From NCBI GenBank assembly GCA_050084515.1, contig CM114271.1, positions 9,734,001 through 9,798,000 of the forward strand: 64,000 nucleotides of DNA. Reading direction: 5' to 3'. How positions within the stretch are numbered: the stretch's first letter is position 1; the number at the start of each line of letters is the position of its first letter. A program made the translations under genes and the position numbers. Below are positions 1,071-50,109 of this stretch, in pieces. A model generated the notes under the pieces. The model did no database searches. It saw nothing but the letters and a program-made list of their open reading frames with translations, and was not told the origin of the DNA. This stretch comes from Blasia pusilla. Taxonomy: Eukaryota.

Positions 1071-1553
1071 TTTTTCCGGAAATGCCTCCACCTATGTCCA
1101 CGATGAATCGCTTGATCAGTCGCCTTGCTGATGTCGAGATGAGTCGCCTTGATGGGTAGCTCGAATCGTCTCGCGATCATTCAGTCGAACCGTCTCGCTC
1201 TCGTTCGGTCGAACCGTCTCGCTCTCGTTCCCTCGTATCGACTCGCGATGACTCGCCGTGTGAAACGCCCCTTGGTATCTGATCAGCTGCTGCGCGGGAG
1301 AGAGAGGAATGGAGATCGCGAAATGAGAAACCGGAAATGAGCGATTTAGGCCCTATTTATACTTTTCTAGCCGTTGGGCTGACTGTTGGGTCCCGTCGTC
1401 CTTTTGACGGCGACGTGCCGGAGGTTACGGAAGTCCGGACGTGAAAAATGGCAACCCGTCGGAGTCCGACAGTTTGCGCGCCTCCGCCGTCCTGGGTACG
1501 TCGCCACGTGCGGAAGAAACCCGTTGGAGACCGATGGGTTGAGCACCTCTGCC
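1..1553 (-). mobile_element. MULE-like element copy 0 (fragment: 5' part of gene B plus promoter), inverted relative to copy 1
   Basis: Reverse complement of the 5832-7290 / 60160-61690 segment; breaks at ~1553 (gagcacctctgcc|aatacatcc) into transposase 3' sequence. Confidence 0.9.
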
Positions 1554-4500
1554 AATACATCCTTCCTATTCCATTGCCACTCAAGACATCTTTCGTGGCG
1601 ATGATCTCCATTTTTGCCTCCCGAGCTGATGCAATTCATTTTGCTCTCTCCACCGTTGGCCTGCACATTCTGTTTCTCTTCACCCCATTTCTAGACTCAA
1701 ACAGAAATAATGGATTGAGATCATCCACCTTCTCCGGGTACATGTTGACATCAATGCTGGGTTGAATACGAAATGCGAAGGTCTCTGTAATGCGAACTTG
1801 TAAGATTGTCCACTTCGTCTTGAGTGCAGTTCGTACCTGCGGCAATGGGCCAAATCATGGGGGTATTCCCGGGAGCTCCAATGGCAGCCGGATAAGACTT
1901 CCGGAAAGCGCAAGATTCATTTGGGCAGAAGAAGTACTTCAATTGATCCCCGGTCCTCGTGAAACGATCAAAGGTTTTGAGTCCCCAAAACCCAGGCAGT
2001 GGTCATCCAGTCCTTGTACAGTTCTTATTTAGGAAAGTGCCGCATGCTCTCCTAATGCCATCAGATCTTGCCCTGCAAGTGGGTCCACGTCCTGGGTTGC
2101 TCCGAGATATATGCCATCGTTTTAGGTTGCAATCCACCTCCATTACCGGAATCCCATATTGTTGAACCACCCCAGTGATAGGATGTTGCGAACTTCCAGC
2201 AACGGAGGTCTTTTGAAATAAAACATTCACTGATTTTGGAGAAGTAACTCCATCACGGATTTGGGACGGGTTTGGGGTCCCTGAATACCTGGGCGGCGTA
2301 ATTTCCTCATCCAAATCAATCACCGGATTCGTTCCTTGATGTTGCCTCTTCACCTGCCTGAAGTCAAGATACTTATCTGGTCTCCATGAGTCTCGCTCGG
2401 ACTGCTCTACCACCATATGTATGGGAAGTCTTGAAACCCACCCACGAATATCCCCACCAATGTGTACGTCTTGCTCGAGTGGAGTTCCAGCTACGCACCG
2501 GTTGAAGGCTTCCACATACATTTTTTCATCACCAGATCTCACATCCGCCTTGACATAGAGCTCGTAGATCAACGGCCCCTTTCCTTTTGTTATGCCTTTT
2601 GTGAGGAAGATATGGGATGCTGCACACTATAGCATTGCTCTTGCCTGGTCTTGTTGGCATGCTTGTGACGACCTCCAGGAGGAATGAACACTTTTTGCTC
2701 CACTTGTGTTGGGGCAGAGGGCTTTTTCATGAACGTTCAATCCCTGCAACGACGGCAATGTTAGAAGGGAACAAAAATAACTCAGGAGTCAAAGAAATAA
2801 GCAACCTGTCGGAACCAGACGGGTTGCAAGCCCGAGGCATCCCATGAACGACTCTGCGACCCGTCGGGTCCCGACGTGTTGTAACCTTAAATCCACCTAC
2901 TACAACCCGTCGGAACCTGACGGGTTGCAAGGCCGAGGCATCCCATGAATGACTGTGTGACCCGTCGGGTCCCGACAGGTTGCACACTCCCGTTGCACCA
3001 AAAATCTGGATGCAACCCGACGGTTTCCGCTGGTTGCACACTCGGGCAACCCGTCGCATCCGATAGCTTGCTTGGTTTCTTGGGTTTGAAATCCATATAG
3101 CTCCCACGCTTCTCACCCTGAGCTACAACTTTACAAACAATTCTCAGCGTGAGCTTGACAAGAAAAAATAGTGAACTCACCTGCCGCATGAAGTTTCCCC
3201 ATTGTCTCATACGTACACTCCACCAACTCAACCAAGAGCACAACGCTTTGTACTTCCCCTCAATCGAATGCTTCCTCCACCATCCATGAAGTTCTTCCTG
3301 GCATTCCATGGCTTGCTTCAAGGTTTTGTTGTCCTTGCAGCGTTGGAGTAGAGTGACATGCTCTGTCCTCTTATTCTCCTTGATGCAAGATTTGGTGTAC
3401 CGGGTCACAGACTGTTGCCAATTGAAAGCATCCGACCTTTCCCTCTCCGGTTGAACCTCTCCACCCAAGAACACTTCCCAAATAGCAATCCATCCAGGTT
3501 GTGCATTGTCTGCCATGAACCCATAAATTTCCGGAGGTGGCCTTTTGTTTTCCTTCACCACCTCCAATAAGAGTAACCAACACATCTTCAAACTGCCAAC
3601 GTCTTCTGCCTTTACTTCACAGACAAATATAGTTTTGAGTCCCTTCTCCACATGGTCATAAACGTGAGCACCCATCGTCAACCATCCGTTCAACACTCTG
3701 TAGCAAATATCAAAGCTTACCCAGCTCCCGTAAAGATCTTCCCCTTCCCTCATTCGATCTATAAGATCGAGGCCACTCGACGGACCTGTGGTTGACATTT
3801 TGAAGACATAGGCCCTAGATCCCTCGCCTCCTTGGCCCATGAATTGCCATCTCTGAATGAATGGAAATCTGGAGTTGGCCTTGATTTTGGCAATGGCATC
3901 CATTTTGGCCGTCTTTCCATCCATAACTCGTATTTGACGCAGCAAATTTCGGAAGCATTTAGGATCAGCGAGAAATGCGAGATTTTCCCTGAGTTGTTTC
4001 TCCTCAACCGCCGTGATCTCGCCCTGTCCAGGGATTCCAAGAAATTGTTCACAAATTTGTGATGTCGTTGTGAGCTTGATCACTCCAGGCTTTGAACCCG
4101 GAGAGTTTCTGTAGACCTCGGCTACTTTCTTCGCCACATCCTCCTTGATGTGTCTTTGAATTGCATCGGTCACACGATGAGTGTGGGAGCCAACATGAAC
4201 TACCAACCTTGTATACTCTGACGTGGAGCCCAAGTCGTGGACAATGAAAAATATGTATGCAGGACATGCTCCAACGTAGAAGGGCGATGCCTGACAATGA
4301 GGACATCGATGGCCTCCCGGCGGTATGGTGGCACCGATCTCGTATGGAGTTTCTGCATTCTTGGGAGGGAATTGCGACGTATTGACTCGCCCGTTGCGCT
4401 CTAGATACGGGCATGCTGGACTTCTACACTCCAAGGCTCCCACGCATTGGTGGCGGGAGACAATCCAAGGACCATATGGAATGGAAGCACTAGTCCGTTG

Positions 4501-5188
4501 AAGCGTGCACCATCGATGATAGTCAGACTTTCTGTCCATACCCTTCAGGCGTCCTCCATCCTTCTTTTGAGCAGGAGCAGCAAGTGGAAGCAACTAAAAA
4601 ATGCAATAACCATCGTACGTGGGCGGAAGCTTGTCAACAAGAATGTGCTTGAACATTTTCAAGGCCAGAGACAAAAGCAAACTATTGCCTGATACTCGCA
4701 AGAGGAACCAGTAGGCGGACAGAGGGCCCGATTGGTGTCCGCAGATCCATCGAGGTTGATAACATCCGGAATCTCTTCGGGAAGAACAACATTGTTCTGG
4801 CGTCACGGTTGGAGTCGGCCGGATCTGCAGAGCTCGAAGTTGCAAACGAGAGCTCGGAGCACTAGGAAATTCTAGACCGTCTACTTGGGAAACAGACGAG
4901 GTCAAAGGGTGCAATAAACTCAGTATTGACCATTTGCTAGAGGTAGGAGATTCCATACTTTCTGATCTGAGGTCACTTTGGTGGACTGTCTCACCTATTA
5001 TGTCTTATGTACCGTCCACCTAACATCTTTGGATACAAAGATGGTTCCAATTTGAGAAGAAATCGAGCATGAGACGAAAAATTTTCATCCACTACTATGA
5101 AAGACTCACGAGCTTGGGGTCGAATGATTTCTGATTGAGGAAGGGCCGCCAGATGACTGCCACAAGTGAGCTTAACATGATTATCCAT
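1554..5188 (-). pseudogene. Mutator-like DDE transposase with GCM/WRKY-like Zn domain; one intron 2744-3180
   Basis: CVGALECRSPAC...CPHC...CPA...HVGSHTH; D1 in SFDICY, D2 in FMADNA, DAF(N/H)W at the CxxH position, E position in TSGA(K/E)SVH (Lys in this copy); phase-0 GTGAGT...TTGCAG intron; frameshifts. Confidence 0.85.
2810..3072. repeat. Palindrome cluster (GCAACCCGTCG-N5-CGACGGGTTGC) in the transposase intron
   Basis: About six degenerate copies, confined to the intron 2744-3180. Confidence 0.9.
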
Positions 5189-6318
5189 TCCAAGAAGATT
5201 CCAACTGGAGGACACTGAGAATGAGAATGAGAATGAGAATGAGAATTTTTAATTTATAGTGAATAGGAAAACAGATACTCCTGACAGATTTTTACTGACA
5301 AGATGAATTCGGTGGGTGACATTGTCTGACACAATGGATCCAATTCTCTAACACATTCAGTTCTGTTCCAATATGTTACTGGATTTGGGAAGCAGAGGGT
5401 TGCGAATCACACTTGGAACCCGTCGGAGTCGTGGTAACTCAAAATTACCCGGCTAACGGCGCAACCCGTCGGCCGGATCGTTGCACGTCGCCAAACATTG
5501 TCGAAGCGAGCAACCCGTCGCTCTCCGACGAATTGCTCAGATACCGCTCCTTCTTGCTCGAAGATTCCGGAGGCGTGCAACCCGTCCCCCTCCAACGGGT
5601 TGCGCAAGGGCCTCACCTTGTGGTGCTTACATGAAGTGTGCAACTAGCCGGACTCCGACGACTTGCACGGGAAGCCCACGTTCTTAACCCTTGATGAGGG
5701 AATCGTGCAACCCAACGGCGGTCTCGACGGATTTTCTGGTACGCCCGTTCCGCCCCAAACACGGCGGAGGCGCGCAACATGTCGGTCTCCGACGGGTTGC
5801 GCGGGTTCCTCGCGTTCTTTTCCGAAGACGACGGAGGCGCTCAACCCGTTGGTCTCTGACGGGTTGCTCACGCACGTGGCGACGTACCCAGAATGGCGGA
5901 GGCGCGCAACCTGTGAGACTCCGATGGGTTGCCATTTTTCACCTCCAGACTTCCGTAACCTCCGGCATGTCGCCGTCGAAAGGACGACGGGACTCAACGG
6001 TCAGCCCAACGGCTAAAAAAGTATAAATAGGGCAGAAATTGCTCATTTCTGGTTTCTCATTTCACGATCTTCATTCCTCGATCTCTCAAAGAAATTGATC
6101 GATCTGAAGGGGCGTTTCACACGGCGACACATCGCGAGTCGATAGGAGGGAACGAGAGCGAGACGGTTCGACCGAACGACAGCAAGACGGATTGACTGAA
6201 CGATCGCGGGACGATTCGAGCTACCCATCAAGGCAATTCAAGCTTCCCATCTCGACATCAGCAAGGCGACTGATCAAGGGATTCGTCGTGGACATAGGTG
6301 GAGGCATTTCCAGAAAAA
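5189..6318. promoter_or_regulatory. Divergent promoter region between transposase and gene B, with palindrome cluster
   Basis: TATAAATA at 6022-6029 (also 60350-60357 and, reversed, 1354-1361); reverse-strand TATAAA near 5252-5257 beside (GAGAAT)n; multiple palindromes at 5417-5932. Confidence 0.65.
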
Positions 6319-7290
6319 ATGACGAGGAAAAAATCACAAGCCAAAAAGTCTGGGAGCTTCACTCCGAAGTCTATTAGGACTCCTGCGTCAGCATCTCCTG
6401 GGCCTCGTTCGGCGAATGAAATTAGGCAGCAGGAAATCGAGGAGCGGGAAAGGGAAGCGGAGATGCACAACCAAGTGCTTCTTGCGAGACATGTTCAAGA
6501 GGCGCTCGATAAACAGAACGCAGAGGTTGAGACGTTGCAGGCCTTGAAGAAAAGGATCGCCAACGAAAAGAGAGAAAAGAAGCGTCTGGACGCGTCGGTG
6601 ATGAGGGCAGAATTGGCTAAAGCGAGGAGGGAAAAAGCGATAGCCATTGACGATAGCCCTGCCCGTCCAACCAAAAGTGTTGAGATGCGGGAAATGTCCC
6701 CCATGAAGTCCAGGGACACAATCAACATAGTGGAAACGCTAGAAGTTGAAATCGATGACGACGAGGTCATGAGGAACGCCAGCGTGGAGATGGTGGACAT
6801 GGCCGAAGAAGCCGAAGAGCAGTCATTCTCGACTCCAAGCCCGGCGGAGGACATCGACCTCTATCGGATCGACGAGTTCCCAATCGATTTGCCAGCTTCT
6901 GTCAAGAAACCGACCCCATTTTCGAGCGGGTAAGAGAGGATCTGGGTTTTTTGAATTATGTGAATTGCAATTCATTGGGGATTCAGTGTAGCTTATTCAT
7001 CTTGTCCCGGTTCTGACAGGTGGTAAAGCAGATGGCACTCATGGAGGGCCACAACGCCCCGAGGATTCCACTCTGCCGATTGCGGACAATGGAATACGTC
7101 CGCGAAATTCAGTCCGACGAGGACATCGCGAAGCTTAAACAATCGGCAGAGACAACATCCTACGTCGACAGCTTTCCTCCCTTCTATGTTCAGCCTTACG
7201 ACGAGCATGGAACCCAAGCTCTGGTTAAGGAGGAGGACTTGGAAAAGCTCGACACATTCTGGAGGATGCGAGACGAGGATTTCAGAAGGC
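6319..7290 (+). pseudogene. Gene B exon 1, intron 1 (6930-7019) and partial exon 2
   Basis: MTRKKSQ... charged, coiled-coil-like N-terminus; GTAAGAG...TGACAG intron conserved in all copies; truncated before WDGNHR. Confidence 0.85.
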
Positions 7291-8262
7291 TAAATGTCTA
7301 AGTGTAAATAAGAAACACTTAGACATTACATATAGTCGAAGACTTTTTTGGCGCCGCTGCCGGGGAAATTTCGACCACCCCAAGGAGAGACGCCACTGAC
7401 TGCTTGATGAGCCGCTTCAAGACCTGATTCGGCGGCGCCAAAAAAGTCTTCGACTATATGTAATGTCTAAGTGTTTCTTATTTACAGTCAATTGTAGAGT
7501 TCGATCCCCAAGAGGATCATTGTTGGATGAAAAGAGAGTATAAAGTGATTATTATGTTGTAAAAGTAGTGTGGTTGATTATGTAATTCAAATGTAGTATT
7601 CGAGTTACATCTTCCGATCCTTTTTAGTACCTATGTTTTCTTCTTCAATTCTCTCGAGTGGAATTTAAAGTACGCTCAGGAAATTTGTTCTCTCGACATC
7701 TTGGAACTTCACAGAGACCTCAAGAATAAAGTTGGCTTCTCCTACTTTCGGAACTTAATCCGTCTGGGCAGGTTACTTTCTATCAAACAGATTTCATACA
7801 ACTCTATGTTGATTATTCCATTGATGAGAAAGGTTCGCCTGATTCATTCTTCACTCGGCAGATCCAAAAAGAATATTCAGACATAAGCCTCGCACATCAG
7901 AATGAATGAATAAGTGCTTTACTACTCCATCAAGAATTGGAAGACTTCAAAGTATATACAAGCTCGAGAGGGTACAACTTTCTTGCTCGGACCATTCCTA
8001 CAGCATAAGGACTTCATGAGCGAATGATCATGATAGCTTCTGTCTTGTTTCTTAAATATTCTCGAGAGTAGGAGCGTTTCTATGATCCGAAGCGTTCTTG
8101 ATGAAGTTGGTGTCTCTTCAATATCTATAACTACCTAGATCTATGGTGTGCGTTCCTTTTCCTATGATCCCTGTGAATCCGCGGTACAAACCATAATGTA
8201 CAAGAGTCTTTGTTCAATAAAAAAATACATTTCTTCCAAAGTACAAAATTGTGGGTATCACA
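7291..8262 (-). mobile_element. Internally deleted LTR of Athila-like family A with a fold-back LTR-end/PBS junction
   Basis: Ends ...GTGGGTATCACA at 8262 (reverse complement of LTR start TGTGATACCCAC at 32188); PBS TGGCGCCGCTGCCGGGGA at 7349-7366 and an inverted partial copy at ~7432-7440. Confidence 0.9.
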
Positions 8263-9186
8263 TTGTTTTTTGCCGAAAGCAACTCGTCGGACTCGACGGG
8301 TTGCTCGACTCGACGCTTTTTCGGATGTTTTTAAGAATGCAACTCGTCGAAATCCGACGAGTTGTTCGATTGACCACAGATTTAATTAGTTTTTGGCCCA
8401 AAGCAAACCGTCGGAGTCCGACGGGTTGCTCGACTCGCCGCCTTGTCAGGATGTTTTTTTGAAGAATGCAACTCGTCAGACTGCGACGAGTTGTTTGACT
8501 GACTGCAGGTTTAGAATGTTTTTTGCCCAAAGCAACCCGTCGGAGTACGACGGGTTGCTTGCCTCGAAGCTGTTTTTGGCCAAAATCAACCTGTCAGAGT
8601 CCGACGGGTTGCATTCGGAAGTTGGTTCCCCAAATTTTGCGTCAAATTGTAGGTTTCCATTCAATTGCGCAACCTGTCAGACTCCGACGGGTTGCTATGT
8701 TCACGTTAGTATATTTAGTTGCACAACCCGTCGGAGTCCGACGGGTTGAAACCAGGCATTAGCAAATCTGAATGCAATCCGTCGGACTCCGACGGGTTGC
8801 ATCATTTAGCTCGTTGCTAGAATCCGACCTTGAGCTGTGACGACCCGTCGGAGTCCGACGGGTTGCAGGAACCCATGTAATTTCCTGACGGGTTCAGTTT
8901 GGATGTGCAAGATTGTATCGGAGGGGAATGTCACCCACCACTGGATCCAGGATTGCGATCGGGTGAGGAAGGTGCTTACGACGCACCCGGGAGAGTACAG
9001 GGGGTTCTTGTGCGATGCCCTTGTCAATCAGATGCTTGCAAAGGGTGCTCAGATTAAAAAGAAAACTTGGGCAAATAAGTTTATTTCCCAAGATGCAGCC
9101 GTAACCATCCTTTGCTGGTCGAAGATACAGGCCGCGAAGAAGAGCGCTGCACTGGAGTTGGAGCGGAGGGAGAAGGTATCTGCGTC
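8263..9186 (+). mobile_element. MULE-like element fragment: gene B intron 2 (palindrome array) and start of exon 3
   Basis: Colinear with 61950-62875; about ten palindromes at 8279-8866; IVSEGNVTHHWIQDCDRVRK coding. Confidence 0.9.
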
Positions 9187-9589
9187 GAGGTGCGGTAAGA
9201 GGAGAGGAAGAGAGGAAGAGAGGAGAGAGGAGAGAGGAAACTACCTTCAACCGAAATAGATAATTTTTTTTGAAGAGAGTTTCCGTTGGGTTTAAGAGAG
9301 GAAACTTTTTGTGTGAATATTTTTGCACTTTTTTGTTCATTTATTAAACAATCCCACAGTTTTTTTTTCCTCTTCCATATTTTGGCAACCCCTGTGAGTC
9401 CGACGAGTTGCAAATTGCACAAAATTTAGAAAATTGAAAAATCAGTGGAATCATAAGTGTGGAACCAATCACTTTTTCCATCCAAGGTCTGGAAAAAATC
9501 TATCATTTTCCCCGGGCTGAAAAGAGTTCAAGCTCAAAGTGAAGGTTGAGGAAAAATAAAAGTACAATCTAAAACCTCATTTTGCATCC

Positions 9590-12500
9590 TCAAAGTGGTT
9601 TGTTTAAAATACTTCGCACTTCTTTGAGGGATGGGGTGGTTGGTGGATTCCTACTCCTACCTCCGACTCTCTTAAAACTACCAGCAACACATAGTACATG
9701 TGCTTACAAGGGAAATACCTTTTGCCACTTGTCTCTCTTTGGACAAAGTCATCACATCAACATGTGGGAAAGCAACAAATGTGCACCACATACACCCCTG
9801 TGACACTTGAATTTACAGTGTTGATCCTGACCCAATACATCCTTCCTATTCGATTGCCACTCAAGACATCTTTCGTGGCGATGATCTCCATTTTTGCCTC
9901 CCGAGCTGATGCAATTCGCTTTGCTCTCTCCACCGTTGGCCTACACATTCTGTTTCTCTTCACCCCATTTCTAGACTCAAACAGAAATAATGGATTAAGA
10001 TCATCCACTTTCTCCGGGTACATGTTGACATCAATCTTGGGTTGAATACGAAATGCGAAGGTCTCTGTAATGCGAACATGCTCCGAACTTCCCCCGTCTA
10101 CGAGTTTGAAACCGGCACTTGTAAGATTGTCCACTTCGTCTTGAGTGCAGTTTGAGCGATGGGCCAAATCGTGGGGGTATTCCCCGGAGCTCCAATCGCA
10201 GCCGAATAAGACTTCCGAAAAGCGCAAGATTCATTTGGGCAGAAGAAGTACTTCAATTGATCCCCGGTCCTCGTGAAACGATCAAAGGTTTTGAGTCCCC
10301 AAAACCCAGGCAGAGGTCGTCCAGTCCTTGTACAGTTCTTATTTAGGAAAGTGCCGCATGCTCTCCTAATGCCATCAGATCCTGCCCTGCAAGTGGGTCC
10401 ACGTCCTGGGTTGCTCCGAGATATATGCCACCATTTTAGGTTGCAATCCACCTCCATTACTGGAATCCCATATTGTTGAACCACCCCAATGACAAGATGT
10501 TGCGAACTTCCAGCAACGGAGGGCTTTTGAAATAAAAGATTCACTGATTTTGGAGAAGTAACTCCATCACGGATTTGGGACGGGTCCGGGGTCCCCGAAT
10601 TCCTGGGCGGTGTAATTTCCTCATCCAAATCAATCACCGGATTCATTCCTCGATGTTGCCTCTTCACCTGCCTGAAGTCAAGATACTTATCTGGTCTCCA
10701 CGAGTCTCGTTCGGATCGCTCTACCACCATCCAGTATGGGGACGTCTTGAAACCCGCCAGAATATCCCCACCAATGTGTACGTCTTGCTCGAGTGGAGTT
10801 CCAGCTACGCACCGGTTGAAGGCTTCGACATACAATTTTTCATCACCAGATCTCACAGCCGCCCTGACATAGAGCTCGTAGATCGACGGCCCTTTTCCTT
10901 TTGTTATGCCTTTTGTGAGAAAGATATGGGATGCTGCAGACTGTAGCATTGCTCTTGCCTGGTCTTGTTGGCATGCCTCCACAAGTGAAATTCGTTGGCA
11001 TGCTTGTGACGACCTCCAAGAGGAATGAACACTTTCTGCTCCACTTGTGTTGGGGCAGAGGGCATTTTCATGAACGTTCAATCCCTGCAACGACGGCAAT
11101 GTTAGAAGGGAACGAAAATAACCCATGAGTCAAAAAAATAAGCGACCCGTCGGAACCAGACGGGTTGAAGGCCCGAGTCATCCCATGAACGACTCTGCGA
11201 CCCGTCGGGTCCCGACGTGTTGTAACCTTAAACCCACCTACTACAACCCGTCGGAACCTGACGGGTTGCAAGGCCGAGGCATCCCATGAACGACTCTGTG
11301 ACCCGTCGAGTCCCTCGGGACGACACCAAACATCTGGATGCAACCCGTCGGTTTCCGTCGGGTTGCACCCTTGGGCAACCCGTCGATTTCCGTCAGGTTG
11401 CACACTCGGGCAACCCGTCGGTTTCCGTCGAGTTGCACACTCGGGCAACCCGTGGGTTTCCGTCGGGTTGCACACTCGGGCAACCCGTCGCATCCGACAG
11501 CTTGCTTGGTTTCTTGGGTTTGAAATCCATATCATTCCCACGCTTCTCACCCTAAGCTACAACTTTACAAACAATTCTCAGCGTGAGCTTGACAAGACAA
11601 AATAGTGAACTCACCTGCCGCATGAAGTTTCCCCATTGTCTCATACGTACAGTCCACCAACTCAACCAAGAGCACAACTCTTTGTACTTCCCCTCAATCG
11701 CATGCTTCCTCCACCACCCATGAAGTTCTTCCTTGCACTCCATGGCCTGCTTCAAGGTTTTGCTGTCCTTGCAGCGTTGGAGTAGAGTGACATGCTCTGT
11801 CCTCTTATTCTCCTTGATGCAAGATTTGGTGTACCGGGTCACAGACTGTTGCCAATTGAAAGCATCCGACCTTTCCCTTTCAGGTTGAACCTCTCCAGCC
11901 CAGAACACTTCCCAAATAGCAATCCACCCAGGTTGTGCATTGTCCGCCATGAACCCATAAATTTCTGGAGGTGGCCTTTTGTTTTCCTTCACCACCTCCA
12001 ATAAGAGTAACCAACACATCTTCAAACTCCCAACATCTTCTGCCTTTACTTCACACACAAATATAGTTTTGAGTCCCTTCTCCACATGGTCATAAACGTG
12101 AGCACCCATTGTCAACCATCCGTTCAGCACTCTGTAGCAAATATCAAAGCTTACCCAGCTCCCGTAAAGATCTTCCCCTTCCCTCATTCGATCTATAAGA
12201 TCGAGGCCACTCGACGGACCTGTGGTTGACATTTTGAAGACATAGGCCCTGGATCCCTCGCCTCCTTGGCCCATGAACTGCCATCTCTGAATGAATGGAA
12301 ATCTGGAGTTGGCCTTGATTCTGGCGATGGCATCCATTTCGGCCGTCTTTCCATCCTGAACTCGTATCTGACGCAAAAAATTTCGGAAGCATTCAGGATC
12401 AGCGAGAAATGCGAGATTTTCCCATAGTTGTTTCTCCTCAACCGCCGTGATCTCGCCCTGTCCAGCGATTCCAAGCAATTGTTCACAAATTTGTGATGCC

Positions 12501-13087
12501 GTTGTGAGCTTGATTACCCCGGGCTTTGAACCCGGAGAGTTTCTGAAGACCTCGGCTACTTTCTTCGCCACATCCTCCTTGATGTGTCTTTGAATTGCAT
12601 CGGTCACAGGATGAGTGTGGGAGCCAACATGAACTGCCAGCCTTGTATCCGCTTAGGTTGATAACATCCGGAATCTCTTCAATAAGAACAACATTGTTAC
12701 GAGTGTGCGAAGTTGGAGTCGAAGCCGGATCTGCAGAGCTTGGAGTTGCAAACGTAGAGCTCAGAGCACTAGGAAATTCTAGACCGTCTACTTGGGAAAC
12801 AGACGAATTCAAGGGCAGGCCGTAAACTCTGTATTGACCATTTGCGCGGTGTAGGAGATTCCATACTTTACTGATCGAGGTCACTGGCTGGACCGTCTCA
12901 CCTATTATGTCTTCGTACCTTCCACCTAATATCTTTGGATACAAAGATGGTTCCAATTGAAGAAGAAATCGAAGACAGAAAATTTTCATCCTTTGCTACG
13001 AAAGACTCACGAGCTTGGGGTCGAATGATTTTGATTGAGGAAGGGCCATGGATGACTGCCACAAGTGAGCTTAACATAATTATCCAT
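9590..13087 (-). pseudogene. Mutator-like transposase with C-terminal SWIM finger; intron 11085-11614; GCM-like domain deleted
   Basis: SFDICY / FMADNA / TSGAESVH triad intact; SWIM-type CxC...CKH remnant at ~9700-9765; stop at 9590. Confidence 0.85.
11340..11506. repeat. 35-bp tandem expansion of the palindrome unit in the transposase intron
   Basis: Unit starts at 11340, 11375, 11410, 11445, 11480. Confidence 0.9.
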
Positions 13088-13228
13088 TCCAAGAAGATTC
13101 CTACGGGAGGAGATTGAGAATGAGAATGAGAATGAGAATATTTAATTTATAGTGAATAGGAAACAGATACTCCTGACAGATTTTTACTGACAAGATGAAT
13201 TCAATGGGGGAGATTGTCTGACACAATG

Positions 13229-16094
13229 ACTTGGGAGCTTCACTCCCAAGTCCATTAGGACTCCTGCGTCAGCTTCTCCTGGGCCTCGTTCGGCGAATGA
13301 AATTAGGCAGTAGGAAATCGAGGAGCGGGAAAGGGAAGCGGAGATGCACAACCAAGTGCTTCGGCGAGACGTGTTCAAGCGGCGCTAGATAAAGCGTAAC
13401 GAAGAGGCCGAGACGTCGCAGGCCTTGAAGAAAAGGATCGCCGACGAAAAGAGAGAAAAGAAGCGTCTGGACGCGTCGGTGAGGAGGGCAGAATTGGCTA
13501 AAGTGAGGCGGGAAAAAGGGATAGCCATTGACGATAGCCCAGCTCGTCCAACCGCAAGTGTTGAGATGCGGGAAATGTCCCCCACGAAGTCCGGGGACAC
13601 AATCAACATAGTGGAATCAACACCAGTTCAAATCGATGACGACGAGGTCATGAGGACCGCCAGCGTGGAGATGGTGGATATGGCGGAAGAAGCCGGAGAG
13701 CGGTCATTCTCGACTCCAAGCCCGGCGGAGGACATCGACCTCTATCGGATCGACGAGTTCCCAGTCGATTTGCCACCCCTATCTCGACAAGTTAGTCGTG
13801 GTCAAGAAACCGACTCCATTTTCGAGCGGGTAAGAGAGGTTCTGGGTTTTCTTAATTATGTGAATTGCAATTCATTGGGATTTCAGTGTAGCTTATTCCT
13901 CTTGTCCCGGATCTGACAGGTGGTAAAGCAGATGGCACTCATGGAGGGCCACAACGCCCCGAGGATTCCACTCTGCCGATTAAGGACAATGGAATACGTC
14001 TGCGAAATACAATCCGACGAGGACATCGCAAAGCTAAAACAATCGGCGGTGACAACATCCTACGTGAACAGTTTTCCTCCCTTCTATGTTCAACCTTACG
14101 ACGAGCATGGAACCCAAGCTCTGGTTACCGAGGAGGACTTGGAAAATCTCGACACATTCTGGAGGATGCGAAACCAGGACTTCAGAAGGCAAGTTGAGGG
14201 CACGGAATTCAGCTAGATGAGGAATCTGCATTTCTTCATCTGGGATGGAAATCACAGGTTCATGGCGTGGACCAAGTTTGCGGAGGAGCGCCCAAACTCA
14301 TTGGAGGCACATTTCTGCGTGAAGGCAGTGGTCCTTCACCCATACCCTCATCACATGGCGACGGTGGAGATGGAAATGCATGCCATGAACACGTAAGTAT
14401 CTTTAACACTTTCGCAACTCGTTGGACTCCGACGAGTTGCTCGATTGATGAATGGGTTAGGTTTGTTTAGGCAGAAAGCAACTCGTCGGACTCCGACGGG
14501 TTGCTAGACAACACGGTTTTCCGGATGTCTTTTTAAGATTGACACTCGTCGGACTCCGACGACTTGTTTGATGGAACATAAATTTAACTAGTTTTTGGCC
14601 CAAAGCAACCCGTCGGAGTCCGACGGGTTGCATTGGGGCAAAAACCTTCTAAACCTGCAGTCACTCGAGCAACTTGTCGGAGTCCGACGAGTTGCATTCT
14701 TAAAAAAACAACCTCACAAGGTTGCCTATCGAGCAACCCGTCGGACTCCGACGGTTTGCTTTGGGCCAACAACTAGTTAAATCTATGTTCAATCATACAA
14801 GTCGTCGGAGTCCGATGAGTTGCAATCTTAAAAAAACATCCAAAAAAGCGTGCAGTCCAGCAACCCGTCGGAGTCCGACGAGTTGCTTACCTGGCATTAG
14901 CAAATCTGAATGCAACCCGTCGGACTCCGACGGGTTGCATCATTTAGGTTGTTGCTAGAATCCAACCCTGAGCTGTGACGACCCGTCGGAGTCCGACGGG
15001 TTGCAGGAACCCATGTAATTTCCTGACGGGTTGAGTTTGGATGTGTAGGATTGTATCGGAGGGGAATGTCACCCACCATTGGATCCAGGACTGCGATCGG
15101 GTGAGGAAGGTGCTTACGACGCACCCGCGAGAGTACAAGGGGTTCTTGGGCGATGCCCTCGTCAATCAGATGCTTGCAAAGGGTGCTCAAATTAAGGAGA
15201 AAAGTTGGGCAAACAAGTTTATTTCTCAAGATGCAACCGTAACCATCCTTTGCTGGTCGAAGATACAGGCCGCGAAGAAAAGCACTACACTGGAGCTGGA
15301 GCGGAGGGAGAAGGTATCTGCGTCTGAGTGCGCCAAATTCATCCAAGCTGTTGTATCTACTGCAACGAAATACACGGCGAGCAAGATGCAGCGATACATC
15401 AGCATTCTCAACCCCGAACTTGGTCCGGAGTTCTACAAGGAGCTCAAGGCGATTATCACGCGTCAACGGAAGAGGGATGAAGATCCGCATGGTCGGATTG
15501 GGGAGAAAGTGTCGCTGGATCGCGTGCATCGTTTTGCGTTATCCGGGATTAGCGAGTTCAGGAGGATACGACTGATGAAAATCAGTCTCGAGGGCTCAGA
15601 GGCCCAGAAGAGGGCGGCACACCATCCTCCGGGTGTGTCCGATCCAGTGATCTCGCATTGGCTACGCGAATGGTCGTTCTGGGACGCGTTGCGGGTAATC
15701 GGGAAGTCCGTGCTGGACGGTCTGCAAGCGGAGCTCAGAAGATTAGAGCCCATTCCGCCGGAAGCAAACCTTGAAAGTTCTGGAGATTACGAGGTTTGGC
15801 TCAACGACATCCGGGACAAGCCAACCAAGAACCCAGGATTCAAGACCATGTTCAAGGTTTGCGTCCTCCCTCAGGCAGTAGAGGGTAGAGCTTGACGAAG
15901 AAGTAGAGGGTAACAAACGGGATCAAGCGAAGAAGAAGCGAGATCTACAGGAGCAGACGGCCGATAGTGTTCGACTAAAAGCTGCCCAACGGATGGTATT
16001 CAGGTACCTCATCCAGTGTAAGAATGCAGGTACGTGGGGAAAATTACCGGCAGCCTTGAAATTGTGGGCTTCGCCGCCGGATGCAGAGACATTC
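13229..16094 (+). pseudogene. Gene B exons 1-3 (introns 13830-13919 and 14393-15048) with ParB/Srx-like motif
   Basis: TGGGATGGAAATCACAGG (WDGNHR) at 14241-14258; GT-AG introns restore the frame (AC|G ATT GTA); in-frame stops; cut by LTR at 16095. Confidence 0.85.
14414..15004. repeat. Phased palindrome array in gene B intron 2 (63-64 bp period)
   Basis: Starts at 14414, 14478, 14541, 14605, 14669, 14733, 14797, 14860, then two more. Confidence 0.95.
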
Positions 16095-17118
16095 TGTCGT
16101 GCGCCTACTCTCCTTGAACGTTAATCTTGTTTGTTGCGGAAGCGTGCGTTCAGTAAGTCACGCTCTCAACGCTGATCTGCATCCAAACACGCACGCCGGT
16201 TAGTCGGGTCTTGGATCAATCAGCGGGATTACTTTCCGAGTTCTCGTCTCGGACTCTCTCTTCAAGCTCAACCTTCCTAGTTTCGCGGTTTCCAACACGG
16301 GCAAGTCTCAAAGACTTGGGATGAGACTTTTCAGTCGGTTCGGGGAACTGAAACGGCGTTTCGCGCCTAGCGGTTCCAACTGTCCGATGAACATCCAATG
16401 AGTTCCTCACCAAGACTCACACGAAGTGAATCTCGGTTGGAATCCAAGTGTGGCGTACAAAGTCCACTCCCTTGGATCAGGTTTGGCCGGGTTTCGCGCC
16501 AAACTCCCGTTTCATCCCGCCTCAAACGCCGTTTGGCGCCCAAAGTGAGGTTTCGTTTCCCGAGACATCTCAGAGAAGGTACTCCCCTTACTAGTACTTC
16601 TGGGGATCTCCGGGGGCCCCCTACATTTAGGGAAAGACACCCGGGCCCCTCCAATTGGCCCTCAACCCGATTGCTCTCTGAATCGTTTTCGGCCAATATG
16701 TCAGCCTGTACTTATGTGTTTGCTAAGATCTTTGGTGCGTTGGAAGCGTCTCAAGATCAGCTTTCCAACGCGCCCTTACTTGTCCCGAACGCATCTCGGA
16801 GCTCAACGTTATGGTCCTAAACACAGTCAGATTCTCCCAAACGCTAGCCGTGTTCCAAACTGGTTCTCACCTCTTTGGCAACCAACCTCCAAGACTCAAC
16901 TCATCTCAAGTCTCGGCTCGCGTTTGGTCTAGGTTTCCTGGTCGCAACCACTAACGCATGAAACGCACAACTCTGTTCCACGTTTCGTCTCTTAGACTTT
17001 TCCAAGAGACTCTTCCAAACGCCTCTCCAAAGCGCAAACCTCGCGGCGTGAGTTCCTTTGAGTTCTGATGTTTCGCTTGGCGCGTATTTGGTGTTGTTTG
17101 GTTATGAGGGTCGCGACA
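16095..17118 (-). repeat. Chromovirus 3' LTR (~1024 bp)
   Basis: TG...CA termini; reverse-complement match to solo LTR 29247-30271. Confidence 0.95.
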
Positions 17119-17808
17119 CTCACTCCTCCTTAGAAGGTTGATGTCCTCATCAACGCAAACCTTATTGATGTTAAGTTCTGGGAAGCCGACCCCTTAACAC
17201 GTAATCGCGTTCGTAGCTAACCCGCAATTCCTCTTTTTGGCTTAAGTCTTAGGTTTGTCGCTTAAAGACTTAGACTTATTAGCTTCGCTTTCGATGAGCT
17301 TAGACTAGTTCTGCCAAACGAATCTAACTATCAAAATAAGCTCACTAAGTCTGCAACCTAACACTTCACTCACTATTTGTAAACAACCGCCTGTCTACCT
17401 AGCCAACTCTTACTACTTTTGGGTCACCTGTATTCCACCTAGGCGCGTCACTAAGTTCAGTCATGAAACATGAATGAGATCACCACAAACCCCAAGACAG
17501 ACTCATCTGCCCCGCCGACGTTAGGGCGAGCCCAAATGCTAGTACTTCAACACTTGGTCCTGATCTAGATGCCTTATCTGAATACAAGCTCTCACCTCAA
17601 ATACTCATTGTTTGGTCTCCTTGACTTACATCCTAAGCATATGAAGAACTACTCATTGCATTGCACAAACCAAACTCAAAATTACAATACAAGCATCGAA
17701 TCTCCGAATCCATGTCTTCTTTATTGCAACAACTAAACCTTTCTAGTTACAACGGGTTATCGGCCCAAGCTTTCCGGTCACAAGTTATGTCCATTGCTTC
17801 ACCATGTA

Positions 17809-19087
17809 CTAACGCACGTGCTTTGCTTGCATCCATCTGAAGTCACGCAATGCTTCTTGCGCATGTTCTAGATCCGCCTCCGCAATCCAAGTCGCCTCTT
17901 TCACATGATAGCCTTTCCACTTGACCAAGTACTCGACTTGGTGGCCCTACGCCTGGAACGCAGAATAGTCTCAACCTCAAACTCTGGTTCCTCATTTCTG
18001 ATGACCGGTTGTGGTCTCAACATCCTCCTTCGCTCCGGACGCACATTGTCTTGAAGATACTTCTTCAATAATGACACATGGAAAGTCGGGTGAATCTTGA
18101 ACTCGTTTGGCGGCTCCAACGTGTACACATCCTCAAACGGCCTTGCCTTGATCACATACGGTCCAAAGATACTTGGGCGACAATTTATAAACAATTCTTT
18201 CGGAAGAGTGAGATTCTTAACACTCAACCACTGTTCCCCAACTTGAAACTCACATGGCGCCGACTTTTGTTAGCATGCTTTACGCATACCTTAGTTGAGC
18301 CTTGGCGAGACTTTTCTCTCGCTTCGCTCTTGTCGTTCCTACATTTCCACTAACAAACATTCCGCCGTTGCTTGACGAGTGTGTGTCGATGTATTGCCCT
18401 TCGAAAGAGCTAAGTCAAGAGGCCCTTGTGGTTCTCTTTGATACGCTGAAGAAACAGAGATTCTCGGTTGCGAGAATGCTTAGTCGAGTTGTAACAATAC
18501 TCAGCCATACTTAACCACTTGGCCCAATCTCTTTGGTCCGCACTCACGTAATTCCGTAAGTATTGGTTTACGACCGAGTTTTTTTTTCCGTTTGCCCATC
18601 CGTTTGAGGATGGAAGGCCGATACTAAAGCCGAGTTTGGTCGGAACCTCCTGAATAGATGTTTCAAAAGGCACCGTAAACTTCGGATCCCGATCGGACAC
18701 AATGCTCCTAGGCAATCCCGGCGCACGCCACCAACCATCCAGGAATAGTCGGAAGTCGCAGAGGGTCGCGCGACTCTCTCGTCGGCACAAACCTCCCCAA
18801 CTTGCTAAACCGATCAACTATCACAAGTATAGCGTTGTATCCTCGATTCGAAGACTCGTAATGAAATCCATGCTAATGCTTTGCAAGGGTCCCTCGGGAT
18901 TGGCAAAGGATGAAGTAAACCTTGTTTCTTCGCATAAGACACGCGGTTCGCTGGCGCAGTCACACATGTTTTCACATATTGAGCAACATCTTCCTTCATG
19001 TTGGGCGGAAGAACCTCTTAGACAAAACAAAGCAAGAGTGGATTTCTCCCCTTTGTGTCCCGCCAAAGGTCCATCATGACATTCCAC
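17809..19087 (-). pseudogene. pol: Chromovirus integrase plus chromodomain, heavily frameshifted
   Basis: HDGPLAGH, SISMDFIT, SIVSDRDPKF, GPY, IHPTFHVSLLK, EFEVETIL...EYLVKWKGY...ATW. Confidence 0.9.
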
Positions 19088-19090
19088 AAA

Positions 19091-20759
19091 CGCGGAGGCG
19101 GAATCGTCCGGACGAGCAGGGAGAGAGGGTCAGACCAGGTCCTCGGCGAAGAAAATGCCACCAGAATCCGAGGTCATAGAAACCCCGACAAGCCGTCCCA
19201 GACTAGGAGAAGCGGAAGCGAGAGGTGCCTGAGTTTTCCCAAGGAGAATACAGACCCATCATCCTTGGGAAGACACAGACAAACAACGACCGGACAAGCG
19301 TCCTCCTTCGATTCACCTCTTTCTTTGGATAAGTGCCGACTTCACTTCTCAGCGTCGACAATTGCCATCGAAAAATTGACAACGCTGGGACGGAAGCTCC
19401 AACGAAACGGGCACGCTGCCTGGACGGTGAATGGAGTGGTGGAAGAGGTTGCGGTGGATCTCTTGATTGCCGATCTGCCCTCGGGGTTGCGACTTTGGGG
19501 CGAAAATCCGCGGACGAGGTACCCGAGTGGAATCTGCCGCTCACTTATGACCAGATTGCACTTTTGTTCTCCTTGCGAGATGCCTATCCGAGTGTGAGGG
19601 CTGCTTCTTGGTGTTGGACTGGAGGGAGCGGGCGAGCTCTTCAACCTCCAGTGCGTCAAGAGGTTGCTAAAGTGGAGGACGGCACAATCATGGATCATCA
19701 AAAACGAGTACCCACTCCGATCCGCAACGAGTCAGATTCGGGTAAGGCTCAATTCCTGTACAATAATTTCAATTATCTTATAATGATGTGTAGAATGAGA
19801 GTCAGTCTGGGTTTTTTCTGTCCGTGAGCAACCCGTCGGAAGGCGACGGGTTGCTGGCTTAGAGCAGCCCATGCTCGGATGAGAGCAACCCGTCGGTTTC
19901 CGACGGGTTGCATCTTTCCCACATACAGAGGAAAAACCGCGGTGTACCTGCAACCCGTCGGAACTCGACGGATTGCAGTTGATTTTGGTTTTTGGATGCA
20001 ACCCGTCTAATAGCGACGGGTTGCTCTCAGGCGAGCATGGGCTGGTCTAGGCCAGCAACCCGTCGCCTTCCGACGGGTTGCATCTGAAAACCAAAATCAA
20101 CTTGGAAAACCCAAAAGCAACTGCAACCCGTCAGGTTCTGACGGGTGGGTCCGGGACAAAACAACCCGTCGGACTCCGACAAGTTGATCCAAAGTCAGTT
20201 ATTGAAAATCTTCTCAAGACGACTTCTTTAGTTTCTGACATTGTTTCGTGCTGATTTACAGATGGACCACTCCTACGTGTACTGCTTCGTTTGGCCCGAG
20301 CACAATTTCCAGGATCTTGTGGATCCATGCTCAGATGGATACAGCTTAGATAGTTTGTACAATTCTCCCCCGGGAATTTACATGCAAGACAGTACCCCGC
20401 TTTTGGGAGGAAGGGAAAAGTCGCCAGCCCTGATGCAAACGCTCTTCGAGCTCTGCTCAAGGCCGGGTGACTTGGTGTTCGACTTAGTGGGCCTTTCAGG
20501 GGCGAGTATCAGAGGCGCCTGGCAGAGTGGCAAGAACATTCTCTGTCTTGAGGGAAGGCAAGAACTGTTTGACCTTTGCAAGGAGGCAAAGGCAGAATAC
20601 GAAAGGCTCGTTGGGGCGTACAACTCTCCACCGAAGCCGAGAGCTCCGGTTCCAGAGCCACCCTTGGTAGTGACTCCATCGTCACTTCCAACGATTCCCA
20701 AAATCGGGAGGGCAAGGCCGAAAGTGATTTTGCAAGAGCTCTCGGACGATGACGAGTGA
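19091..20759 (+). pseudogene. Gene B 3' part: beta-class N4/N6 DNA methyltransferase-like domain; intron 19742-20261
   Basis: Start matches gene B of other copies (63965-64000; 46245-46300 reversed); VDLLIADLPSG at 19454-19486; EKSPALMQTLFELCSRPGDLVFDLVGLSGASIRGAWQSGKNILCLE in the last exon 20262-20759; GTAAGG...TTACAG phase-0 intron; several frameshifts in 19091-19741. Confidence 0.75.
19828..20187. repeat. Palindrome cluster in the methyltransferase-domain intron
   Basis: Seven copies at 19828, 19885, 19950, 19998, 20055, 20123, 20161. Confidence 0.9.
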
Positions 20760-21234
20760 GTCCAAAGAACTCAACGACCCAGCTTGACTGCAGCGTTTGG
20801 AGTAGGGACATTTTTGATAATTTGGCAAAAGATTTCATAGAATAGATCAAATGTACAGTTCCGAGCTTTTTTCGGATGATATAAAGCAGAAGATTTGTTC
20901 GATCGATGGTGGTGCTTGTAAATGTTTGGTGATCATTTTGTCTTTTCGAATGTGATCGTCTATGTACTCCACGGTCTTCTACTTTGCAACCCGTCGGATT
21001 TCTCCTGCTTGCAATTTTCACTTTATGACCACTACAACCCGTCGGATTTCTCCTCCTTGCAACTTTTCGCTTTTTGACCACTGGACCCTTTTTACCACCT
21101 CCAGGCAACCTGTCTGATTCCGACAGGTTGCCTGATCGGACCCTTTTGGATCAGGCAGTCTGGCAGGCTTCTTCCCTTGGCACCTTCCCCTCAACTGGTA
21201 AAGGCAGGCGTAGGCTTCTTTTCTTCTCTCAGAC

Positions 21235-21555
21235 GTGTTGGATTCCTTCTACCTGTGCGGTTTCCATAGTGGTATTACCGGGGACGGAGGAGATATTGAT
21301 ACTGGATGGGTGTCACATTGCAAAGCGTACAAGGTATACTGCCGAGGAAGGCGGTGGGACTCGAGACAGGTTACATGGGACCGTTATGGTGTACCTAGGG
21401 GGGGGCCAAGGCTCTCGAATTCGCCAACATTTTCGATCCCCGTCTACAACCGGCCAGAGGAGCCACTTGAATCCCAAGACATTCCTTTGGTATTGTCACC
21501 GAGGAGAGTTAGGAGTAAATTTGTAGATGACGAGGCTGAAGAAATCATAGACTAG
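21235..21555 (+). CDS. Possible third element gene or terminal exon, unknown function, acidic C-terminus VRSKFVDDEAEEIID
   Basis: Preceded by a pyrimidine tract and CAG at ~21230; C-terminus and stop position conserved in the diverged copy at 54902-55020 (-). Confidence 0.4.
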   Translation: MLDSFYLCGFHSGITGDGGDIDTGWVSHCKAYKVYCRGRRWDSRQVTWDRYGVPRGGPRLSNSPTFSIPVYNRPEEPLESQDIPLVLSPRRVRSKFVDDEAEEIID

Positions 21556-21660
21556 GTTCAATGTACATTTGTGAGGTTCCTTCGGAGGTAATAAAGGACG
21601 AGATGTTTTGAACCCATAATGGTGTTTGTAAAAGTTTTCTGGAATATGTTTTTGGACTTG

Positions 21661-22310
21661 TGGAGGTGGTGCAAGAGAAAGGCCCAGCAGCAGGTTGTCC
21701 AAGAACAAGTCAAGAAGATTGTACAAGGTGATAATGCAGCCAAGTCACTCCATTGACCTCAAGCCTAGAGGAGACAAGGGAGATGGTGTAGGCACTAGGG
21801 AGTCTCCAGGGTATCCAATGAAGGAGATAGAGTGCTTGATTGCTGTTGTAGAGGAGGGTTTGAACCAAGGGGGTGGATCTGATTGTTAGGGCCAAGAAAT
21901 GAAGAATAAGGGGCTAAGAAGAGGTCAATGGAGGCTGAGCTCAAATGCTTGGACTCTTGTGGGCTAGAAGATTCCTCATGGAAGCCTAGAGGACCTCATT
22001 TGAAGGCCATAAAGCTTGAGAATCCAAGGGAGAGATCTATGGAGTTGAGAGGATCCAAGGAGTGATTTCTGGAAGATTTGTGCAGGTGGAGCTAAGTGGA
22101 GGTGTGAACTGAGGGCGGGGCTCGAACCAGATTGAGAAGAAGCAAGCATGGGAAGAATATAGAGGTAGATCTCACCTTCAAGCATGTCCAAGAGACAGGT
22201 TGAGCCTATGCCATCAATATTGCTCAAGAGGCTTTAGTTAGGGCAGGTTCAGAAGTAGATGAGGTAGAAATTTCACGCAGTAGATGCCTTGGAGTAGATG
22301 CTTAGGGTTG
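21661..22310 (+). mobile_element. Fragment of LTR-like sequence of gypsy family C
   Basis: 21935-22307 resembles 44505-44862. Confidence 0.7.
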
Positions 22311-22369
22311 GCATCCGGGTGGTCCTCCAACAAAAATACCAAGGGCATTGCTTTTGGTTGACCAAGATG

Positions 22370-22615
22370 AGGAGATGTTAGGAAACTTAGGCTCACATGG
22401 AGAGTGATGGAAAAATGTTTGTAGTGGTCTTATGATGTCTACTTTTTTTTCGCCCCAAGGAAAAAGGAGGTTTTTTTAGGGCCAAATGTGGACCACTACA
22501 TACTCTCTTCTAAAGATTTCATGGATTTGAAAGCAAACAAAAATTTCAAATATGTCATAAAGTTTTGAAGAGAGGAGGCAGATTTGGCCTTTTTTTTTGA
22601 AGAGAGACTCTCCTC
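22370..22615 (-). repeat. Dispersed AT-rich repeat, probably a subterminal part of the MULE-like family
   Basis: Reverse complement of 52900-53145; end also resembles 54375-54400. Confidence 0.6.
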
Positions 22616-23049
22616 TTCTTTTTGGGTCTGCCGAGTGAAGAATGAATTAGGCGAACCTTTCTCATCAATGGAATAATCAACATAGAGTTGTATGGAATCT
22701 GTTTGACAGAGAGTAACCTGCCCAGATGGATTAAGTTCCGAAAGTAGGAGAAGCCAACTTTATTCTTGAGGTCTCTGTGAGGTTTCCGAGATGTCGAGAG
22801 AACAAATTGCCCTGAGCGTACTTTAAATTCCACTCGAGAGAATTGAAGAAGAAAACATAGGTACTAAAAAGGATCGGAAGATATTACTGGAATACTACAT
22901 TTGAATTACATAATCAATCACACTACTTTTACAACATAATAATCACTTTATACTCTCTTTTCATCCAACAATGATCCTCTTGGGGATCGAACTCTACAAT
23001 TGACTATAAATAAGAAACACTTAGACATTACATATAGTCGAAGACTTTT

Positions 23050-49739: not shown

Positions 49740-50109
49740 GGTGCAGGTTGGGTCAGTTCTTCCTCCTCGATAGTCTAATGTGCTTATGTGCACGAGAGAT
49801 CCCTTGAAGCATTTTGTGATGAAGCGCCGTGACCCTCTAGCGGATGGGTTCGATTTTTTTGAACCCTCAAAGCGTCAGGTGCTGGATCGTTGTAACCTTC
49901 CAACAAAGTGGTGATGTAACGGAGTTTGGCAGCGGAAAGGTAACGTCAGCTGCTGCGAGGAAGAGCACATGAAATCGCGAAATGAAAAACGGAAATGATC
50001 GAAACCTCAACCTTTTATACTTTTTGAGCCGTTGAGCTGACCATTGGGTCATTGGGTCGTACCGACGGCGACGTGTCATCCGTTTTGGAACTTTGCACAT
50101 GGGAACCCG

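Follow-up and report, generated by a model that had tools for sequence, protein, structure and literature searches.

A conserved methylase-like domain lacking the catalytic aromatic residue in the accessory gene of an abundant Mutator-type transposon family of Blasia pusilla

Accessory genes that join a ParB-like domain to an amino-methylase have been described in algal transposons. In the Ectocarpus element Sola1-1_Ec32, a gene coding for 1104 residues, with a ParB-like domain and an N4C/N6A methylase, lies opposite the transposase, and similar proteins are cited in green and red algae (PMC12477816). Red algal Plavaka, Mutator and Zisupton elements are described as carrying PAG2 (PF01555 and SET) and PAG3 (ParB-like and 2OG oxygenase), in an account according to which no elements other than VANDAL are known to bind their own sequence and change its methylation (10.1101/2025.02.11.637652). 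VANC, an accessory protein of the Arabidopsis VANDAL MULEs for which anti-silencing has been shown, has targets that are arrayed in tandem within introns and in upstream regions (PMC5735166).

The family analysed here appears to be a land-plant variant of these known ParB-methylase accessory genes of algal transposons. With Sola1-1_Ec32, compared by its description only, it shares a ParB-like domain (a provisional name here) and an amino-methylase in one gene opposite the transposase; it differs in being carried by a land-plant MULE and in the absence of the catalytic aromatic residue. With PAG2 and PAG3, as described, it has in common PF01555 and ParB-like accessory genes that adjoin tandem inverted-repeat arrays, whereas there these are two genes with SET and oxygenase partners and here the ParB-like and methylase parts are fused. 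A Pfam scan detected no SET or oxygenase domain in our family, and the accessible part of the red algal account reports no degenerate motif for PAG2 or PAG3 (10.1101/2025.02.11.637652). The likeness to VANC, as described, lies in a MULE accessory gene with arrays of a short motif in the non-coding DNA of the element; however, the targets of VANC are 9 bp long and non-palindromic and its activity has been shown, while here the arrays consist of 27-bp palindromes and an anti-silencing role is proposed. The exons scanned gave no Pfam match to DUF1985 or DUF287, the domains of VANC. ParB or methylases are not mentioned in the Replitrons paper, and a search of the open literature found no description of the bryophyte family or of its motif.

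The catalytic motif of amino-methylases (motif IV) is defined as [DNSH]PP[YFW], with an aromatic residue that stacks on the base (PMC4738411). In the rotifer enzyme N4CMT, a change of SPPY to APPA abolishes activity (PMC8885841), a mutant that does not isolate the Tyr because two residues change. A further account of N4CMT describes an acidic residue that binds the SAM ribose, a motif IV Pro and a downstream Trp that enclose the adenine, and the motif Tyr stacking on the target base (PMC10406627). Methylase folds with disrupted motifs that have yet been kept are described for METTL14/Kar4 and for a domain of the DIRS1 polyprotein (PMC4738411). Our family shares with both a kept fold with disrupted motifs, and with DIRS1 its place inside a transposon, but they belong to other clades (MT-A70; PCIF1-derived) and DIRS1 is a retrotransposon. 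With CcrM, M.RsrI, M.BceJIV, M1.HpyAVI and N4CMT it has in common the fold and the position of motif IV before motif I; these beta-class enzymes carry DPPY or SPPY, in contrast to D-x-P-[S/T/E/K] in this family, and Marchantia DN4MT1, compared by description only, likewise has SPPY.

The window is a stretch of 64,000 nucleotides of the Blasia pusilla genome. An earlier note, made from its letters, had flagged positions 19454..20507 as a methylase-like domain in which both key motifs are degenerate. Both readings hold: GAT CTG CCC TCG GGG at 19472-19486 encodes D-L-P-S-G, with the Ser codon TCG at 19481, and GAC TTA GTG GGC CTT TCA GGG at 20481-20501 encodes the altered motif I, DLVGLSG. As the note had also stated, the domain is single in the window, each half being matched once by tblastn. 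The flagged interval spans two exons, and a GT-AG intron of 520 bp (19742-20261) splits the domain. The features of the locus are the following.

9187..22616, no strand assigned: interrupted copy of a ~12.3-kb MULE (Mutator-type) DNA transposon; its pieces map to a full copy
10098..11129, minus strand: open frame (ORF) over most of the transposase 3' exon; spliced RNA joint 449-994 (CT..AC) on the sibling copy L083
11142-11471, no strand given: second palindrome array, in the transposase intron
11615..12646, minus strand: MULE transposase core exon (DDE RNase H-like), from atlas matches; ~520 bp of its 5' part deleted at 12647; boundary approximate
13232..13916, plus strand: remnant of exon 1 (charged, coiled), its 5' part shortened by a deletion of ~1.15 kb; end approximate
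13923..14390, plus strand: exon with a putative ParB/Srx-like domain (W-D-G-N-H-R), located by tblastn; a stop in the window copy
14414..15004, no strand assigned: ten 27-bp palindromes in the intron after the ParB-like exon
15050..16095, plus strand: conserved 5' part of the long exon, probably helical and without a family match; start approximate; on L083, splice joint 5464-6442 (GT..AG)
16096..19094, no strand assigned: 3-kb foreign insertion with retroelement-like fragments, breaking the long exon; ~330 bp of the element lost
19095..19741, plus strand: 3' part of the long exon, with a linker and the first methylase-like half, DLPSG at 19472-19486; four small indels
19742..20261, plus strand: GT-AG intron, phase 0, with seven 27-bp palindromes inside; donor GTAAGG and acceptor TTACAG are the commonest across loci
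20262..20755, plus strand: exon with the second methylase-like half, REKSP, DLVGLSG at 20481-20501, strand-2 Glu (LEGR) and a proline-rich tail
21399..21555, plus strand: putative last exon, ending FVDDEAEEIID; donor GTGAGT at 20756 in 91 of 94 regex matches; frame conserved across loci
21665..22305, no strand assigned: foreign sequence within the right subterminal region; the element resumes at 22306-22616, after which an LTR-retrotransposon-like block starts

The gene is carried by a MULE, whose outline was taken from ten flanking regions, from the sharp left end to the right end. In the window the left end is GAGGTGCGG at 9187 and the right end has been severed by later insertions; elsewhere the left end stands sharply against unrelated flanks in 22 of 25 loci, and the right end is a short imperfect inverted repeat, GA-rich, near G-starting ends. 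MULE/Mutator elements are defined by a target site duplication of 8-11 bp. Among seven other copies sampled for it, six with both ends found and a seventh without a located left end, a 9-bp duplication is present in five of the six (three perfect, two with one mismatch); these five are 11.9-12.5 kb long, and at the sixth, which measures 18.7 kb with an insertion, no target duplication was seen. Classical MULEs have long terminal inverted repeats, which this element lacks, and its ends resemble those of non-TIR MULEs. The transposase has PF10551 MULE as its top atlas match (score 0.94-0.96), with the MULE family or clan shared by all ten of the best named matches; a Pfam hmmscan of the transposase gave no match. 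Its core evolves under constraint comparable to that described below for the accessory gene, with a dN/dS of 0.097 between subfamily consensuses.

A search of the 390-Mb genome with the second exon gave 3310 candidates, a count of first-look matches and not a copy number, and all 150 that were scored match at 87-100%. The family is very abundant in the genome, and it is in the Blasia pusilla genome only that the transposon location of the accessory gene has been established. The window itself is a nest of copies of the same MULE, which are also found at 1-9186, 46211-55031 and 55031-64000, one copy being inserted into another at 9187; pieces of the family make up ~34 kb of it, with the ParB-like exon five times and the methylase domain once. 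Several nested, broken pieces of Gypsy-like LTR retrotransposons (gag, protease, RT and integrase frames) fill 22616-44000. An older subfamily is present at 46211-52868 and at loci L094-L111, and its dS against the main one is ~1.0 in the accessory gene and only 0.21 in the transposase, an inequality that suggests module exchange between subfamilies.

The accessory gene runs on the plus strand, opposite to the transposase on the minus strand. We infer five exons, which would encode a protein of ~1,300 residues with a charged N-terminus, a ParB-like domain, a conserved middle region and a C-terminal beta-class amino-methyltransferase fold. The ParB-like exon amounts to 156 residues, and the long exon, of ~676 codons, ends in the first methylase half; the matches of four homologs (P0005, P0007, P0009 and P0018) end at the same intron site. 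Acidic tails similar to the FVDDEA of the last exon occur in P0006 and P0010, possibly as a short protein-binding motif.

The window copy is a pseudogene, through indels and insertions. Four small indels in its first methylase half lead to a stop at 19595-19597 and the second half has a 15-bp deletion; further damage consists of the deletions at 12647 and 13232, the stop in the ParB-like exon, the 3-kb insertion and the broken right end, and some of the one-base indels may have arisen in the assembly. The copy that was flagged is a dead remnant.

The earlier note had left three options for the odd motifs: decay of this single copy, an enzyme with altered chemistry, or a pseudo-enzyme kept as a DNA-binding or base-flipping module. 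An alignment of the genomic copies and relatives yields no canonical consensus; DLPS and DLVGLSG are the consensus of the family. Among 79 distinct genomic contexts, position 4 of motif IV shows Ser (62), Phe (8), Leu (7), Thr (1) or a stop (1), and never Tyr or Trp, while 51 of 81 contexts have DLVGLSG unchanged and a canonical motif I occurs in none of them; the contexts were picked by similarity to the queries and are not a random sample. The Ser codon is TCG in one subfamily and TCT in the other, and the codons of the motif Pro and Leu also differ silently. Between the two subfamily consensuses, dN/dS is 0.073 (CI 0.046-0.129, dS 1.1) in the first methylase half and 0.084 (0.04-0.15, dS 0.59) in the second, far from neutral at 0.07-0.08 in both, and the differences fall on the three codon positions as 14/4/55 and 7/6/34, respectively. 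Values for the ParB-like exon (0.03) and the 5' part of the long exon (0.093) are similarly low, and by these substitution patterns the methylase-like domain is under purifying selection, like the transposase. The fixation of the motifs over genomic contexts and subfamilies, the dN/dS and the silent codon differences rule out single-copy decay as their cause. Of the three options, the best reading is the pseudo-enzyme kept as a DNA-binding module.

The eight contexts with Phe (DFPF/DLPF) were considered as a sub-lineage with a restored aromatic residue, a candidate that now seems unlikely. Copies with Phe are scattered over a star-like tree, and six of seven contain stops (reference-frame count). 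In 18 copies of the older subfamily B (~75% identical), the CTG site at motif IV shows C>T in 8, G>A in 5 and both in none, a pattern that fits deamination of a methylated site acting as a hot spot, although its rank as the most mutated of 81 such sites leaves some weight with a Phe lineage. In old copies, the loss of C at CG and CHG sites exceeds that at CHH by a factor of 4-5; the old copies were therefore methylated, and any protection did not last.

Relatives outside Blasia carry the odd motif IV as well. A phmmer search against 1.84 billion representatives returned 16 matches at E<=0.001. The match P0013 was dropped, the intron text alone having matched. Ten homologs were looked up, among them five from Riccia sorocarpa, one from R. 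fluitans and one from Ceratodon purpureus, and none of these ten is an algal protein. Word-index searches with single exons found nothing, and a profile search found two proteins among 7,999 scored. In the homologs, which are ~30% identical, motif IV reads D/N-x-P-[S/T/E/K] in all 13 that cover it; because none of the 13 has the aromatic residue, its loss must be old and have preceded at least the parting of these gene lineages of liverworts and mosses. Motif I keeps its Asp in 11 of 11 homologs, lacks the Phe in all 11 and retains GxG in 6, and the family in Blasia has a Leu in place of the first Gly of GxG. In one Riccia sorocarpa protein (P0031), the ParB-like, middle and methylase parts follow in the same order, the ParB-like part being 31% identical, and across the liverwort and moss proteins the fold and the intron position have been kept at ~30% identity.

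In alignment A1, whose rows are partly related, motif IV has Asp in 15 of 17 and Pro in 16 of 16 rows, its position 4 varies among Ser, Thr, Glu and Lys, and the Trp downstream of it is present in 17 of 17; likewise conserved among these partly related rows are the motif X Lys (11/15), the motif I Asp (15/15), the last Gly (13/14) and the strand-2 Glu (11/12). Because these Trp, Lys, Asp, Gly and Glu residues are conserved, the loss is sharpest on the base-binding side. The distant homologs, though without the aromatic residue, still have the Asp, Pro, Trp, Lys, Gly and Glu that surround the SAM pocket; on the SAM side the altered motif I stands, but the degeneracy is milder than the note had implied, with several pocket positions conserved and GxG kept in those six homologs.

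Two further sources of relatives were considered and set aside. A prokaryotic source with the same odd motif was sought among phages, where matches were weak (E 0.03-0.08) and the one examined has DPPF and DPFGGSG. A separate, distant family was sought in the Blasia genome with foreign-homolog queries, which gave no better than 25-41% matches, and the loci examined turned out to be of the same family.

As to its class, a sibling copy, translated with its intron included, matches Pfam N6_N4_Mtase with an E of 1.7e-4 and 22.1 bits, below the gathering score of 26.7, which 2 of 15 homologs pass; it also matches M.RsrI weakly. A profile of the family aligns with CcrM (E 2.8e-11; positions 88-308), pairing DLP with DPPY and motif I with DPFFGVG. 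Foldseek, with an AlphaFold model whose mean pLDDT is 60 including intron text (173 of 458 residues above 70), has CcrM as its top match (E 8.9e-7) and M.BceJIV, M1.HpyAVI and M.MboIIa also among the top; 22 matches reach E<=0.001, and all those among the matches listed are amino-methyltransferases. Both comparisons place motif IV before motif I, in the permuted Rossmann fold of PF01555. In place of the [DNSH]PP[YFW] of that family stands the consensus DLPS, and the D-P/F-F-x-G-x-G form of motif I is absent, with its Asp and last Gly kept. Profile and model alike indicate a CcrM-like, beta-class amino-methyltransferase fold, a likeness beyond chance, while judged by motif the family lies outside the active beta-class methylases. 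The Trp after motif IV aligns with a Trp of CcrM in the profile alignment, and is probably the counterpart of the N4CMT Trp.

The exon with DGNHR can be called ParB-like only provisionally, on its motif and weak neighbours. GxxR is the defining P-motif of ParB/Srx proteins (PMC12704722), and it is present as DGNHR in 21 of 32 contexts and also in P0031. Atlas neighbours of the exon (0.92-0.96) include a cluster with ParB_N on 11% of it, and also DUF3723; there is a weak match to DUF1015 (E 0.021), no PDB profile match was obtained, and a poor model (pLDDT 44.5; best Z 2.9) gave no fold match. The DUF3723 clusters near this exon (L083:4995-5462) in the atlas are fungal, and DUF3723 seems to feature in Starship papers, which may point to a broader group of ParB-like proteins carried by transposons. 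The ~400 codons between the ParB-like and methylase-like domains (L083:6443-7663; partly 15050-16095 in the window) are shared with the Riccia and Ceratodon proteins. This middle region has no Pfam or PHROG family match and is a candidate DNA-recognition domain.

The element contains arrays of a 27-bp palindrome with the consensus GCAACCCGTCGG-NN-TCCGACGGGTTGC, common to both subfamilies. The window has 118 strand matches to it, versus 0 in 100 shuffles, seven of the palindromes lying in the intron within the flagged interval (19742-20261). A 9,951-bp stretch of the sibling L083 holds 41 palindromes, with none in the 6,182 bp marked as coding (two exon bounds being approximate), and the retroelement block at 22000-45000 of the window has none. 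The arrays sit deep inside the element, in introns of both genes and in the spacer, and not at its ends.

On balance we lean towards a protein that recognises these palindrome arrays as a self-binding, VANC-like anti-silencing accessory factor, its methylase fold being a dead or weak DNA-binding scaffold. Without the base-stacking aromatic residue the domain would no longer methylate DNA bases efficiently; it would serve as a DNA-binding scaffold and may still hold SAM. The protein would load on the ~40 palindromes that lie in introns and spacer of its own element and, by analogy with VANC for VANDAL, might then counter host silencing by shielding or remodelling CG/CHG-rich sites. Such a sequence-specific anti-silencing factor could serve epigenome editing. 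The family supplies a land-plant case that is amenable to testing, since L083 is a near-intact copy, the 27-bp candidate site is single and sharply delimited, and selection can be measured, and it is informative either way, as a conserved pseudo-methylase used as a DNA-binding module or as a new catalytic arrangement.

The second of these outcomes, an active SAM-dependent enzyme with a rebuilt active site, is rather unlikely. It would write 4mC or 6mA on its own palindromes, for example blocking 5mC, or else methylate RNA or protein; the Asp and Pro of motif IV would orient the amino group, and another residue or a partner subunit would replace the aromatic one. The conserved Asp, Pro, Trp, Lys, Gly and Glu fit a working SAM enzyme equally, as do the SAM-pocket residues of A1 and the homologs with GxG (6 of 11). 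Permuted clades with unusual strand-4 motifs have been noted by Iyer et al. (PMC4738411), and for the algal ParB-methylase accessory proteins a modification of their own element has been proposed (PMC12477816). However, position 4 varies as freely as would be expected of a released site (Ser, Thr, Glu, Lys), and the motif I Phe is missing from all homologs that cover it (11 of 11), while a Leu stands in place of the first GxG Gly in this family.

Rather unlikely, too, is a transposition cofactor of the MURB kind, for which the palindromes would be sites of the transposase zinc-finger domain and the methylase fold would provide dimerisation or non-specific DNA binding, with no part in silencing. 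The termini are short imperfect inverted repeats, so that extra sites could help synapsis, and the AtMu1 transposase is described as itself activating cognate copies (10.64898/2026.08.24.746577). Against this stand the internal position of the arrays, in introns and spacer rather than at the ends, the differing histories of the two genes (dS ~1.0 in the accessory gene versus 0.21 in the transposase), and the similar genes that ride unrelated transposase types in algae (10.1101/2025.02.11.637652; PMC12477816).

Lower again we would place a more specific form of the active enzyme, which strikes us as doubtful: bryophyte transposons would carry an active writer with a new site, D-x-P-[S/T/E/K]-G, which a ParB-like nucleotide switch loads on parS-like arrays and which marks the element's own CG/CHG sites (e.g. 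with 4mC) against 5mC silencing. If true, it would be a self-targeted, prokaryote-derived epigenetic writer in land plants. The idea that an ancestral methylase has decayed into a dead passenger without function is scarcely credible: the window copy and many others are broken, but the dN/dS far below 1 in both halves, the skew of differences over codon positions (14/4/55 and 7/6/34) and the retention of the fold and of the intron position in the liverwort and moss proteins refute this for the family, leaving it to hold for individual copies after insertion.

An index search for RNA holders gave no entry. On the near-intact sibling L083, the reads of three RNA runs favour opposite strands in the two genes, with spliced joints at 449-994 (CT..AC) and 5464-6442 (GT..AG). 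The RNA is sparse, at 304-409 reads per run, and because most reads are <95% alike it comes from relatives and not from the window copy. Relatives of the accessory gene are thus seen to be transcribed, with splicing in part; the RNA joints listed for L083 do not include the intron that splits the methylase domain. Depth peaks on the second methylase exon (L083:8965-9447), at 21-30x versus 1-5x in the rest of the gene. The indels shared by these reads and their loose ends suggest a transcribed relative that has diverged, or else a chimeric transcript. Contigs of RNA run X1 at L083 carry a different short palindrome (around ATCGATCGAT) in the form of loose ends at several places, which is perhaps a small insertion element or a library artefact.
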